A stretch of DNA of 64,000 nt from Octopus vulgaris (Eukaryota): assembly GCA_951406725.2 (NCBI GenBank), contig OX597825.1, positions 85,374,001 through 85,438,000 of the forward strand, written 5' to 3'. Position numbers and translations under genes: made by a program. This document shows positions 744-46,330 of the stretch, one piece after another. How positions within the stretch are numbered: the stretch's first letter is position 1; each line of letters opens with the position of its first letter. The notes beneath the pieces were generated by a model. That model had not been told where the DNA came from. It did not search any database and saw nothing but the letters and a program-made list of their open reading frames with translations.

Positions 744-950
744 ATATGAATAGTTATCGCCAAGCTAACATGGCAGTCCAGAAAAATAGGACGAATGCTG
801 CTGTTGATTCCAAAAGGCTATTGCCTCTTGGAGCTAATCGACGGCAGCATTCGTCCTATTTTTCTGGACTGCCATGTTAGCTTGGCGATAACTATTCATA
901 TCCAGTACCGCTGTCGTAGTCTCCTTTAGAGAGACTTAGAAATATTAATA
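744..950. mobile_element. Fold-back element, 66-bp inverted arms (744-809 / 836-901), right arm extended, between (TA)n tracts
   Basis: Arms are reverse complements except for 2 G-U-type differences; same architecture as the PLE-like fold-backs, but no HHR core retained. Confidence 0.75.
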
Positions 951-2134
951 TTTATATATATATATATACACACACATATATATATATATATATATGTGTG
1001 TGTGTGTGTGTGTGTGTGTGTGTGTGTATGTATGTATGTATGTATGTATGGATGGATGGATGGATGGATGGATGTATATGTCTGTACAGCTATGTTTCTT
1101 CCCTATAGCTATGCTATGATTAATCAAATATATTCTGTATATACATATTTATATACAGTTTCTTGCTTAGGTGTGTTGTGCACTTTTATATGTTCGCACA
1201 CAGATTCATATAGACGCCCTCACAAGCATACATACGCGCATACTGTATATCAGAAGTGCATACTTGCATACGATAACACACATGTAGATATTCGCGTATT
1301 TACATACACAAATGCATACATACAATCAGCACACATACTTGCATGTACGCATATATATATATATATATATATATATATATATATATAATATATATATATA
1401 TATATATATATATATATATATATATATATATATATATATATATAATATTATATATATATATATATATATATATATATATATATATATATATATATATATA
1501 TATATATATATATATACATATATATATATATATATATACATATATATTTACATACGTATATATGTTTATACATATAAGTATATATACACACACACACACA
1601 TATATATAGTGTGAATTAAACAAACTGTATATATATGCATGCGTAAATACATGCAAAAATATATAGAAATATATACACTTCTATGCATACCTGATAGATG
1701 CAGCTCATTAATGTTTTATGGATGGTATTCTGAAAAGGCCCGCAGGATATCTCGTTATTTTGTGTTAGTCATTTTTACTCGTCTCTCATTAACAATCTTA
1801 CATTAAAATTCCAATCACCAATCATTATCTCAGCAAAGAAAGGAATTATACATCATTAGATATTAAAGGTTCTCTGTTAATTAATACACTTTGATCTTAA
1901 AACCAAAAATTTCGCATTAGCACATTGACTCCGTCGAATTTCTGTTTATGAAATCCGGTGACAAATTTATGTAAACTTCACGACTCAAACATTTATGTCG
2001 GAAACACCAGCACGACAGCTTCACGTCAGCTGACCGTACATGTTCAATATGGAGTCACTGCTGCTCCTTATAATGCAGTATGTGGAAGAGAAATGGAGGG
2101 GAAAGCATTAACAAATAATAGTGTTCAGCTCATA

Positions 2135-2270
2135 CTTATTTTATCGACTCCGAAAGGATGAAAGGAAAATGTGACCACGTCGGAAGTTTAACTCAGAAAC
2201 GTGAAGACCGGCGAAATGCCGCTAAGCTTTTTGTCCAACGCGCTGACAATTCTGACAGCTCACCGTCTTT
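2135..2270 (-). mobile_element. tRNA-derived SINE family B (Deu/Nin-like core CCTTTCATCCTTTCGGGGTCGATAAA)
   Basis: Other copies at ~4350-4510(+), 8375-8592(-), 13350-13535(+), 32900-33165(-), 33560-33755(+), 35060-35435(-), 40485-40700(-), 40730-40845(+), 50020-50140(-), 53830-53990(+), 58400-58660(-). Confidence 0.8.
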
Positions 2271-3789
2271 ACATAGAAACAATTTATTTTGCTCTGAAAT
2301 TATCATTTCGTGAAAAAGGCGGCGGAACGGGCGTTATCCGATGAATGAGAAAGGATTAAATAGATATGTTCACCGCTCACACCACCTGACTTCTTTATGA
2401 TGTGTGTGTATATGTTTGTGTGAGTGCGCGTGTATGTGTGTGTGTGTGTGCGCGCATGTGTATGTATGTGTGTGTGTATGTGTGTGTGTGTGCATGTGTG
2501 TGTATGTGTGTGTATGTGTGCGTATATGTGTGTGTGTATGTGAATGTGTGTGTGTGCGTGCGTGTATGTGTGTGCATACCTGTGTGTGGGTGTGTGCGTG
2601 TGGGTGTGTGTACGTGCGTATGCCTGTATGTGTGGGCGTGTGGGCGCGCGCGTGAATGTGTGAGTGTGTGTGCATGAGTGTGTATGTATGTGTGTGTGTG
2701 CGTATATATATATGTGTGTGTGTGTGTGTACATACATACATACATACATGTACACATATAAACATATAAGTCCCATACTTTATCTATGAAGCTCTTTCGT
2801 GTCGAACCCTGTAAAAGCTGAAACGATCGGCCGCCAAAGCATCAATCTGCGCAAACATCAGCAGACATTCCAACTAGGAATAAATAAATAGATAAATAAA
2901 TAAATAAATAAGTAAATAGATAAATAAATAAATAAATCTCGAATATATATGGTGCTGGGAAGAACTCTACCAAAATGTTATGTTGGAAAGTTGTTTTTGT
3001 AAGAGTTTGTGAGTGAGAAATTGGTGTTTGTTGTTTTAGCGGTCGAATGACTAGAAAATCAATGACCACCATTCGTGGATAATATATATAGCGCTCCCTA
3101 GGGTAAGGCACTTTAGGAACTAAGAATATAGAAATCTGAAATTCTGTGAAACACTTAATATTACCAACCAGTGGAAATATTGCCATTCTTGCTAGTCTCT
3201 CCAAGAGAAATTCCTCAAATTTATCATGCAGGAAAGAAATTCTTTACTAAAAGATTAATATGGAGAGCTTTTGTCTACAAGGAAAGGTAAACACATAAAA
3301 CCTCCATTTTGAAATATGGCTTCGAGACTCGATAAGTGTCCATCTTAAAAAAAAAAAGAAAGAAAAAGAAGCAACAACATAGATTACTATGTTGTTGCTT
3401 CTTTTTCTTTCTTTTTTGTTTTTTTTTTTTTTCTTTTAATGTATTCTAAAATGATTTATGTTAGACAAAAATATGCAAAGTAAAAAATAGCTTCCAGAAA
3501 AGTTTTAAAGCCAAAAACGAGAAAAAAAGATGAGGAATATCATTAAGATATTCGTCCATTCGACCAAGACTAGAAGCCATTAAGGAATAAGGCTTCTACA
3601 TTCCACATTTTGTCATTTAATTCTATAAATAACCACCTTCTTGCCATTCGCATATCGTATGAAAGTAGGGCAGCGCCTAAGATCTTTAATTTGTTTAGCG
3701 CCACTGATCTTGTCTCTATATTACTTTATAATCACAATACGAGGAGCCACAGGTTGTCCTTTCTTGAAACTGTTAAACTGTCTATTACA

Positions 3790-4265
3790 TATCTTTTACT
3801 CTTTTACTTGTTTCAGTCATTAGACTACGGCCATGCTGGGGCACCACCTTAAAGAATTCTGGTCGAACGAATCTTCCCCAGCATTAATCGATAAGTGCCA
3901 AGATTTTTTCAAAGTTTGGTACTTATCGGTATCTTTGGCGGGACCGCTAAGTTACGAGAACGTAAACACACCAACACCCGATGTCAAGCGGTGGTGGGGA
4001 ACAAACACACATACACACACACACATACACATCCAAAGATACACACACACTCACAAAGACATACACACGTACACAAAAGCACGCACACGCATGTATATAA
4101 ACGACAGACTTCCTTCAGTTTGTATCTACCAAATCCACTCACAAGACTTTGGTCGGCCGGAAATTATAATAGAAGACACTTGTCCAAACTGCCTCGCATG
4201 GAACTGAACCCGAAACCGCGTGGTTGGGAAGCCGGCTACTTACCGCACAGCCAAGCCTGCGCTTA
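3790..4265 (-). mobile_element. tRNA-derived SINE family A (CORE-like GGCACCTTGGGCAAGTGTCTT), full length with internal (CA)n
   Basis: A/B-box-like head (TGGCTGTGTGGT..GGTTCAGTCC). Other copies at ~5225-5745(-), 8593-8730(+), 9715-10090(+), 15200-15470(+), 16340-16445(-), 19580-19740(-), 23281-23420(+), 23870-24080(+), 26770-27150(-), 37470-37830(-), 48380-48550(-), 49125-49285(-), 58015-58215(+). Confidence 0.85.
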
Positions 4266-44029: not shown

Positions 44030-44289
44030 TTGTTTCATGCTACGGGTGACGATCAAAGAAGCAGAAATACATGCTTAGCTGCGAAATACTTTTTGCCGAC
44101 AGATGATATACTTCTCTGCTTTTTAGCGCAATTAATTTGCGTGAGATGCTTTCTTGAGATTAAAAACACCGTTTCCTGGCTTTCTACAATATACCCACCT
44201 CAAGTAAGATCTATAAAATGCTATTTTGAACTAATTCTGCTTCCATTGCTAATACCGAATAAACACCCCACCCCACCCAATATAGTGCA

Positions 44290-44575
44290 ATTCGAAAGCC
44301 AAGGAAAAGAATCAACAGATTATCATTTCAGCTGACCTGTGCTCTCGGAAAAGAAGCTTCGCTGTTTGAAGAGAATTGTGGAATAGAACCCCGTTCGAAG
44401 GCTTCTGACATTGCAAAACAGCTAGAAGTTAGTCCAAGAACATCTGTTATATATCTGCATAAGCTTGGGTATTATGGACGAGCAGCTAGAAGGAAAGCTC
44501 TCCTTCAACTAATTATTATCAAATAAAAGATTTTGAAAATTAAAGGTGTCTATTTACTTCCTGCATATCTGTGTA
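44290..44575 (+). mobile_element. mariner-like transposase HTH remnant
   Basis: IVE*NP..ASDIAKQLEVSPRTSVIYLHKLGY. Confidence 0.45.
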
Positions 44576-45894
44576 TATATATATATATATATATATATAT
44601 ATATATAGCATATATAATTTATTTAGGCACCAGTAAGCAAATGCGTACCAACGAGGAGAACTATAACAATCATTAAATATGACTGAAGATGTTATAAATA
44701 CCTACATTGCTAGAAATAAGAGCTAAACGCTCTAATGCTGAAGTCAGCGCACATAATTGTCTACATACTTGCCGACAGGGACAGCAATCGCCCGAAAAGA
44801 AGCGATCGACATATTCCCAGACTGATCGGTTAGTATTCAGTGGGATCGGCCCGACTCGGCTGATTCCGGACGACGGTCACTCTCAAGAATATTTGTCTAC
44901 GCCATAGAAATCTACGGATGGTTTAGCGAATCCCTAATGTGTATACAAATAATTTATTTACGCATACATACATACATACATACATACACACATACAGACA
45001 GACAGACAGACAGACAGACATTAATAAATGAAGCTGTTCAAAAACAGTATTGACAATTTTACAATTTTTTCCCCCAAAATTTCTAACTTAAGATCGGAAC
45101 TCGATAGAACAAAAATCCCAGAACTTATTCACAGATGTAAGTTCCGTTGCTGCTGCTATGGAAAAGAGTTGCTAAGAGAAATACGATCTCATATATTCTC
45201 AGAATGGTTTTTCTGAATAAATGAACGAATGATATTATGGCGACTTTCAATAAATGTAGATATCTATATTAAGAATATTTATATTTCTTGCTGTGAAGAA
45301 TTTCATTGTTCTTCGTTTCTTGTAGTGACATCTCTACTCTATTACGTACAAATATATTCAATCCATCATTTACATACATACATACATACATACATACATA
45401 CATACATACATACATACACGTACGTAGGTGTATGTGACATATATATATATATATATATATATATATATATATATATATATATATATATATATATATATAT
45501 CAATTTCGAGTGAAATATTTTTCAATTCTTTAATATATCAACATGTAGGCGATAGAAAGAACTCGATACTCTAACTAAAATAGTTGTAATATATTTGAAA
45601 CTGATATTTAACCAATAGTTTCTCGTTGCCGATATTGGAAGATTATTAAAAAAAAATTGCAGGACAAAACGTTTTAAATGTTTACAGAAGAATCTTTAAT
45701 AAATTGGTTCTGTTATTTGGTTTATAAGTTGTAATAGAAAAAAACATTTTGGAAACAAAATAAATATTTAGTTGCGAGCACGAAGCTGGTGAGAGAAACA
45801 TATAATGGTAGCAATATATTGTATGTGTGTGTGTATGTATATATATATGTGTGTGTGTGTGTGTGTGTATGTATGTATGTATATATATATATAA

Positions 45895-46330
45895 TATATA
45901 TATATATGCATATATACATACGTACATGTACATACATCTATACGTATACATACATACATATATGCATACATACATATGTAGGCACAGGACGTCACGAAAC
46001 GTGTACAGTAAAAAATAGAGACCACGAGTATTTCGAACATTTAACAACAAAATATGAGGGTAGAAAAACAGCCAACAACTGATGAAGAGTCGTTCTTTAT
46101 GTTGTTTGTCTTGTTTTCCATTTGTGCCTTTCGTTACGTGAAAAAATAGCTCATATTCCATGTAATCGTACTTTCTACTTTTTTGTTGTACACGTTTCGT
46201 GACGTCCTGTGTCCACATATGCATATATATATATATATATATATATATATACGTATAGATGTAAGTATGTACATATATGTATGTATATATGCATATATAT
46301 ACATACTTCCATACATATATATATAATGAA
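45895..46330. mobile_element. PLE-like fold-back (ACAGGACGTCAC family)
   Basis: Inverted arms ~45895-46030 / 46165-46330; internal CUGAUGA-hairpin at 46079. Confidence 0.65.

Follow-up and report, generated by a model that had tools for sequence, protein, structure and literature searches.

The question raised by this 64,000-nucleotide stretch of the Octopus vulgaris genome (hereafter the window; assembly GCA_951406725.2, contig OX597825.1, positions 85,374,001 to 85,438,000) is how short insertions made of two inverted arms arose at nine or more places, with both outer ends reading as the 3' end of an element. The initial annotation had assigned these fold-backs (beginning at 744, 9201, 18292, 22675, 28977, 30942, 31450, 38142 and 45895, by which they are named here) to about eight families of Penelope-like elements (PLEs) bearing hammerhead ribozymes (HHRs). 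Our analysis revealed that all nine are 3' ends of PLEs joined head-to-head, the insertion type of endonuclease-positive (EN+) PLEs, and the statistics of their ends make it probable that these 5'-truncated 3' ends were joined by twin priming on RNA from one source element.

All nine proved real, since inverted arms were recovered in 9/9 stretches with scores of 44–1064, compared with shuffled-control maxima of 20–44, and with arm identities of 82–99%; a tenth pair, missed before, was added at 40912–41090. Eight families (A to H) were counted, as had been estimated, with 9201 and 30942 belonging to one family and 744 and 22675 to sister families. The pairs, in coordinates of the whole stretch, are as follows.

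744..957, family A pair: left arm 744–818 (minus sense, tail-less), right arm 823–901 (plus sense), tail 902–957; an internal palindrome is the fold site, and an HHR is carried only by longer copies, upstream of the fold.
9198..9531, family B pair: left arm 9206–9350 (minus sense, tail-less) with a U3-A8 HHR core at 9337(-), right arm 9351–9463, tail 9464–9518; a 12-bp target-site duplication (TSD) was read from the sequence at 9198–9209 and 9520–9531.
18240..18478, family C pair: tail 18240–18291, left arm 18292–18451 (minus sense) with a degenerate G3-C8 HHR core at 18418(-), right arm 18452–18478 (27 nt, tail-less).
22618..22952, family D pair: tail 22618–22674, left arm to 22789, right arm 22818–22952 (tail-less); the HHR lies upstream and was seen in longer copies of this sister of family A.
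28932..29323, family E pair: tail 28932–28976, left arm to 29070, right arm to 29323 (tail-less) with a degenerate HHR at 29135(+).
30940..31194, older family B pair: tail 30940–30987, left arm 30988–31085, right arm 31095–31194 (tail-less).
31451..31658, family F pair: old, outer ends flush and tail-less, degenerate 3' half of an HHR at the fold.
38138..39442, family G pair: left arm 38138–38685 (tail-less), right arm to 39258, tail 39259–39442; HHR cores with a long helix II at 38435(-) and 38961(+), one per arm; target (TA)n.
40912..41090, tenth pair (family C): left arm minus sense and tail-less with an intact G3-C8 HHR at 41037(-), tail-only right arm 41047–41090; the arms do not overlap.
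45881..46325, family H pair: left arm 45881–46030, right arm to about 46325; microsatellite ends, and just a 5' HHR-like core, at 46079.

The claim that most arms are unequal held for only four of the nine within the bounds first given (744, 9201, 30942 and 38142). Three one-sided tails lie just beyond the left bounds (18240–18291, 22618–22674 and 28932–28976), and with these included seven of the nine pairs have unequal outer ends; 31450 is flush, and 45895, which ends in microsatellite, is ambiguous. The outward orientation, with an element 3' end at both outer ends, was borne out in all nine, in eight by the sense of the HHR and in 45895 by its fixed 3' and ragged 5' ends. In the window, which is microsatellite-rich and carries no PLE open reading frame (ORF) of its own, seven insertions contain a full or partial HHR, as described, two being complete and five degenerate or partial, and neither 744 nor 22675 contains one.

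The families were followed in the 2.8-Gb assembly (227 contigs) by searching with each of them (A, 744; B, 9201/30942; C, 18292; D, 22675; E, 28977; F, 31450; G, 38142; H, 45895), and six 100-kb blocks were added as a sample of unselected DNA (600 kb; 664 kb with the window). Analysis of opposite-strand neighbours no more than 300 bp apart in the eight families revealed 103 head-to-head and 0 tail-to-tail pairs. Unselected DNA gave 10:0 for the same comparison, versus 12:13 for two families of short interspersed nuclear elements (SINEs) and an RTE-like end (Fisher p=0.005). Fold-backs are a minority overall (12/55 arms in the 600 kb of unselected DNA), and their rate is family-specific, with 21/24 loci in family D and 12/29 in family G versus 0/23 in family F. 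The abundant ORF-bearing family I, a sister of F, had an inverted arm at 0/23 visible 5' junctions and 1 head-to-head case among 101 arms; six apparent inverted matches at its junctions turned out to be other repeats.

In families A, B, C, D, E and G alike, the 3' ends fall at two discrete positions, 45–57 nt apart (about 190 nt in G), and solo copies end at either of them. Paired arms, however, ended at one of each: 97 of 114 pairs have one tailed and one tail-less outer end, against one tail/tail pair, no none/none pair and 16 unclassifiable pairs. This total comprises 78/92 pairs in A, B, C, E and G (1 tail/tail, 13 unclassifiable) and 19/22 in D, a count that omits seven cross-match or fragment rows, one of them scored none/none. 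The queries of A, B and G contained the tail, so that none/none pairs were under-sampled there, whereas those of C, D and E were tail-less and yielded one of each in 37/37 classifiable pairs; the G query required a 730-nt tailed arm, and D and G were fetched with single-arm queries. Family H (8 pairs: 2 one-of-each, 2 none/none and 4 unclear) was excluded from the tally because its ends fall in TA repeats. The sole tail/tail pair is an interrupted tandem running into a further unit.

The arms are also staggered at their 5' ends. The tail-less arm was longer in 41 pairs and the tail arm in 17, with 34 pairs within 10 nt (p=0.002); C, D and E alone gave 20 versus 5, and at locus L065 the tail-less arm exceeds the tail arm by more than 800 nt. 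Arms consisting of the tail only exist as well, both in the window (40912 pair) and as joints in short-read contigs. TSDs of 10–14 bp, with a mode of 12, were found in 25 of 44 non-microsatellite pairs versus 6 of 283 control sites, and 36 of 80 pairs lie at low-complexity target sites. Of 89 junctions between arms, 42 contain additional bases, which by eye often derive from the element; 24 show an overlap of 1–6 nt and 17 a longer one, and 6 are blunt. No hidden short partner arms were evident by eye upstream of solo copies, and solo copies are therefore not shown to be twin-primed.

To compare the sources of the two arms, columns whose minor allele reached at least 20% were scored within pairs and within permuted pairs. 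The initial annotation named different subfamily-diagnostic alleles in the two arms as the mark of two templates; arms almost always carried the same alleles. Concordance was 62/67 in A and 169/171 in G, whereas permuted pairs were discordant at 45% (A) and 37% (G), and all 13 G pairs were subfamily-concordant, even with arms 2.9–4.2 kb apart. After edge trimming, pairs with at least 2 discordant sites numbered 0/33 in A and 0/10 in G, compared with about 11 and 4.6 in permuted pairs. The shared subfamily alleles indicate that both arms come from one source element. Private changes, in turn, were mostly unshared between arms (22 shared, 248 unshared), which points to a common origin of the arms with little later conversion or homogenisation. 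A concordance value for D was dropped, as cross-matching A copies dominate its columns and D's own variable columns are CpG-like.

Membership among EN+ PLEs is supported by ORF linkage in G and E, by kinship in F, and by HHR, tail and architecture in A to D, and it is weakest for H. Most families have fixed 3' and ragged 5' ends. Family G runs upstream into open frames of 758 aa (L183) and 681 aa (L186) in which reverse transcriptase (RT) motifs and a terminal GIY-YIG were read by eye and which also hold an Asn-rich insert; the endonuclease end is present also in L088 and L181. Both L183 and L186 bear a short inverted arm at the truncated 5' end, and ORF-bearing G copies show the inverted arm together with the one-sided tail (L066 with L183, L087 with L186). 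A Pfam search of the G ORF gave no relevant match; Atlas features linked its RT part at 0.95 to RVT_1/HTH_animal clusters, and BLASTP against family I reached only E=3e-5. In L234 and L246, family E follows some 200 nt after an endonuclease end, directly behind fragments of the RT thumb and endonuclease. Family F is akin by eye to the 3' end of family I, which matched RVT_1 (E=1e-7) and GIY-YIG (E=0.08) in Pfam; a sequence search of the PDB with family I gave no match. At one family C locus (L102) a truncated endonuclease lies 49 nt upstream, and may belong to another element. No ORF partner of A, B, D or H was present in the retrieved loci, a statement limited to those loci since no dedicated genome-wide search was made. 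The PLE origin is upheld, as is linkage to RT/GIY-YIG ORFs for G and E. The description as non-autonomous derivatives is only partly supported and suits some families only: A and D form ORF-less units of about 360 nt, G is the 3' end of an ORF-bearing PLE, and E runs into RT/endonuclease ORF fragments. The A and D units are fixed and head-to-tail; the fixed unit junction occurs in 5–7 A loci and 3–4 D loci, with two complete HHR units shown at none, and the tandem arrays are no longer than about two units, most of them ending in an inverted arm as a cap.

Two side observations concern these ORF-bearing families. The G ORF (L183:450-2723(-), L186:277-2319(-)) has a long Asn-rich in-frame insert between RT thumb and GIY-YIG, similar to the N-rich inserts that PMC3846280 describes in Penelope elements and regards as peculiar to Adineta vaga. 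Family I (L272–L301; 12129 candidates) is very abundant and young, with open frames to 1200 aa and a CT-rich 3' untranslated region; its HHR core is often degenerate, and it has one main 3' end and hardly ever folds back.

The first proposal of priming at both sides of a target break is the best-supported mechanism. In the twin-priming reading, the PLE endonuclease would make staggered nicks in both strands, about 12 bp apart judging by the TSDs, and each nicked 3'-OH would prime one cDNA, one at each RT start site. The tail arm cDNA would start at the downstream site and the tail-less arm cDNA at the upstream site; assigning one start site to each target end follows from the one tailed and one tail-less end per insertion. 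A protein dimer would probably act on one RNA, with strand displacement, after which microhomology, an internal palindrome or templated filler would link the two cDNA 3' ends. The hammerhead would be a passenger and orientation marker, not the cause. Twin priming of L1, reportedly proposed by Ostertag and Kazazian in 2001, is said to let two target ends prime two cDNAs that join by microhomology, leaving an inversion inside one TSD. Arms in that system are not known to overlap, whereas here they overlap into a palindrome because both starts lie within 50–190 nt, and only the tail-only arms are L1-like. In vitro, a PLE protein was shown to nick both strands and extend each of them, with two RT start sites that bound the tail (PMC11167929).

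The strongest rival, which we nevertheless consider unlikely, is self-priming or snap-back, in which a single strand, either cDNA or antisense RNA, folds back at an internal palindrome to serve as its own template, as proposed in the Discussion of PMC3846280 (Arkhipova 2013; antisense RNA), with an early stop or endonuclease trimming producing the tail difference. It accounts for the source alleles shared by the arms and for the 17/89 junctions with overlaps above 6 nt at internal palindromes, although these are mostly from family A, whose query was a fold-back, and three are the references' own junctions. Self-priming, however, nests one arm in the other, so that the tail arm should reach further 5', whereas the tail-less arm was the longer in 41/58 unequal pairs, with an excess of over 800 nt in L065. 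Nor does it fit the tail-only arm without overlap at 40912, or the 42/89 junctions with extra bases in place of a clean fold. The single tail of each insertion, the stagger of the arms and their common source agree with twin priming and sit uneasily with self-priming.

Rather improbable in our judgement is a model in which an asymmetric protein dimer carries two RNAs of one locus, each serving one DNA end, and the hammerhead is uninvolved. This would explain full arm overlap without strand displacement, fits the same-source alleles, and draws support from a reported AlphaFold dimer of the PLE protein (PMC11167929) and from the pair at L011, whose arms look mixed by eye at two linked diagnostic sites. 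Strict cis pairing would be needed despite many co-existing haplotypes, however, and pairs with two or more discordant sites were absent from A and G.

The strict HHR descriptor picked out 11 motifs across 664 kb and none in any of three shuffled versions. A minimal type I hammerhead in the pseudo-long terminal repeat (pLTR) is predicted for A, B and C by descriptor and for D, E, F-type and G by eye, the descriptor, which demands a palindromic helix III, missing the motifs of G, D, E and F-type. Complete HHRs in the nine window pairs are the one at 9337(-), whose core is U3-A8, and those of the two 38142 arms (38435- and 38961+), where helix II consists of a 3-bp base and a long hairpin; 18418(-), with its G3-C8 core, and 29135(+) are degenerate, and only the 3' half is present at 30942 and 31450. 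In H, with its 5' core alone at 46079, an intact HHR was found in no family copy. An Rfam scan of the window gave no hammerhead among the 150 matches listed, which were microsatellite or hairpin noise.

The proposal that the palindromic hammerhead helix III dimerises two RNAs, supplying one template per DNA end, is very unlikely to be correct. Helix III was indeed palindromic in every descriptor-passing motif, as the descriptor required, and dimeric folding of minimal HHRs has been proposed (PMC4209133). A symmetric RNA dimer, though, does not predict the asymmetric ends of one tail per insertion, and arms share source alleles, pairs of mixed haplotype being nearly absent. Helix III is not sufficient, as family I has a palindromic one yet 0/23 fold-back junctions, and not necessary, as Naiads without an HHR form inverted copies (PMC8557442); HHR catalysis is dispensable in vitro, in mutants that kept helix III (PMC11167929). 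Terminal-inverted-repeat DNA transposons (miniature inverted-repeat transposable elements, MITEs), chance neighbours or assembly fold-back artefacts have a negligible probability: five of the nine look flush in the first bounds and a chance SINE pair lies at 40481–40843, but fold points and arm lengths vary in every family, outer ends differ, TSDs peak at 12 bp, ORFs are linked, no tail-to-tail pairs occur, and an artefact is unlikely because arms differ by 1–18%, TSDs are present and contigs from four public short-read runs (three organism labels) independently repeat both family B 3' ends with variable head-to-head joints. An empty site matching the 9201 TSD was looked for in other runs, in which the locus is spanned by no contig.

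Several points weigh against twin priming on one RNA. The searches returned 66 to 3154 candidates per family, of which 40 were scored and the best 25–30 loci kept, and the family A query was itself a fold-back. Family G showed the opposite stagger, with the tail arm longer in 8/13 and the tail-less arm in 3/13, under a biased query. F (31450) lacks a tail, and H, with ends in microsatellite, is ambiguous. Concordance was weak in B (15/21, p=0.02) and in C (90/127, on CpG-like columns), the alleles of D and E were uninformative, and the allele test is one-sided, rejecting a mixed RNA pool and blind to two RNAs of one locus. Frangieh et al. report that the start site did not differ between the strands in vitro, and Craig et al. 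attribute the tail to endonuclease resolution. Later asymmetric deletion at palindrome centres could also make nested arms staggered; a bias above 50% is not expected from such deletion.

Comparison with known systems places the new result in the end statistics. The inverted pLTR copy, one-sided tail and head-to-head bias of PLEs have been published (PMC3846280, PMC8557442; Arkhipova 2013; Craig 2021), as have opposite-strand HHR pairs (PMC4209133; Cervera 2014). The complex EN+ PLE insertions of PMC8557442 and PMC3846280 likewise have an inverted 5'-truncated copy, a tail at one end, palindromes at some junctions, microsatellite targets, a pLTR HHR and a GIY-YIG at the C terminus. They differ in a TSD of 8–10 bp (about 12 bp here), in tails of 30–40 nt (45–57 nt in A–E and about 190 nt in G), in the one-tail pattern, described as 'often' or 'optional' in those papers and near strict here, and in that the octopus units are mostly ORF-less ends of 200–450 bp. 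PAc (Poseidon, Anolis; PMC11167929) is alike in nicking and extending both strands, in its two tail-bounding RT start sites and in its AT-rich targets; its main text reports no strand difference in start site and draws no link from these sites to the opposite ends of inverted insertions. The dual minimal HHRs of Schistosoma (PMC4209133) are similar in lying on opposite strands, 100–700 bp apart, in truncated PLEs and in their U3-A8 core variant, while orientation and ends go unanalysed in the available part of that paper. Non-LTR retrozymes, described as non-autonomous PLE derivatives (bioRxiv 10.64898/2026.07.22.740005), resemble families A and D, whose ORF-less units measure about 360 nt and contain a single type I HHR; a difference is that A/D arrays are at most about two units, usually with an inverted-arm cap. 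In the parts available, PMC13282606 counts Penelope-like families without mention of hammerheads, and PMC8557442 calls the origin of Penelope inverted repeats undefined; no paper linking Penelope with twin or both-strand priming was found in a mostly open-access literature. New here are the families and the end statistics favouring two-ended priming over self-priming; the architecture is known, and there is no new element class.

Some further observations concern the hammerheads and 5' ends. A G3-C8 core swap occurs in many family C hammerheads (window 41037(-), 18418(-); L091–L120), those of A and B being U3-A8, and the available text of PMC4209133 makes no mention of it. Helix II is extended by hairpins of 47–95 nt in several HHR families (window 38961(+); L064, L100, L217; C1 block), that of G having a predicted fold of about -43 kcal/mol, and L100, L217 and the C1 block contain outward-facing pairs of further families. 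In B, C and E, 5' breaks cluster in hot spots that precede the HHR core by 12–35 nt (window 9346, about 18445, about 29100; L229–L246). They may be pLTR transcription starts, in which case many short arms may be full-length copies of the RNA 5' end. A TATA-like box precedes the hot spot by about 25–30 nt in E, and the C hot spot also resembles a 3' splice site. Elsewhere in the window, the SINE pair, tRNA-type and head-to-head in an AT run, mimics fold-backs; a 242-bp element at 34321–34562 with 75-bp terminal inverted repeats, GC-rich arms and an AT-rich core is possibly a true MITE; and solo minimal HHRs of F/I-type families (47675(+), 57717(+)) and a solo tail-less B arm (36615–36727) were noted.

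Short two-armed insertions number in the hundreds in the octopus genome, and the statistics of their ends discriminate between integration models and give direct predictions for the existing in vitro PAc system. Head-to-head pairs of this kind risk mis-annotation as MITEs or microRNA hairpins; Rfam microRNA matches below the gathering score fall at 9280 and 31033. More tentatively, and with somewhat more doubt than belief, we suggest that PLE integration may be intrinsically two-ended: an RT dimer on one RNA would use each start site obligately for one strand, the tail would be a footprint left by the trailing subunit, with the inverted pLTR representing a second cDNA and not a hairpin. If true, this would replace the published self-priming account, and the fold-back rate of a family (D 21/24, I 0/23) would map to having two start sites.

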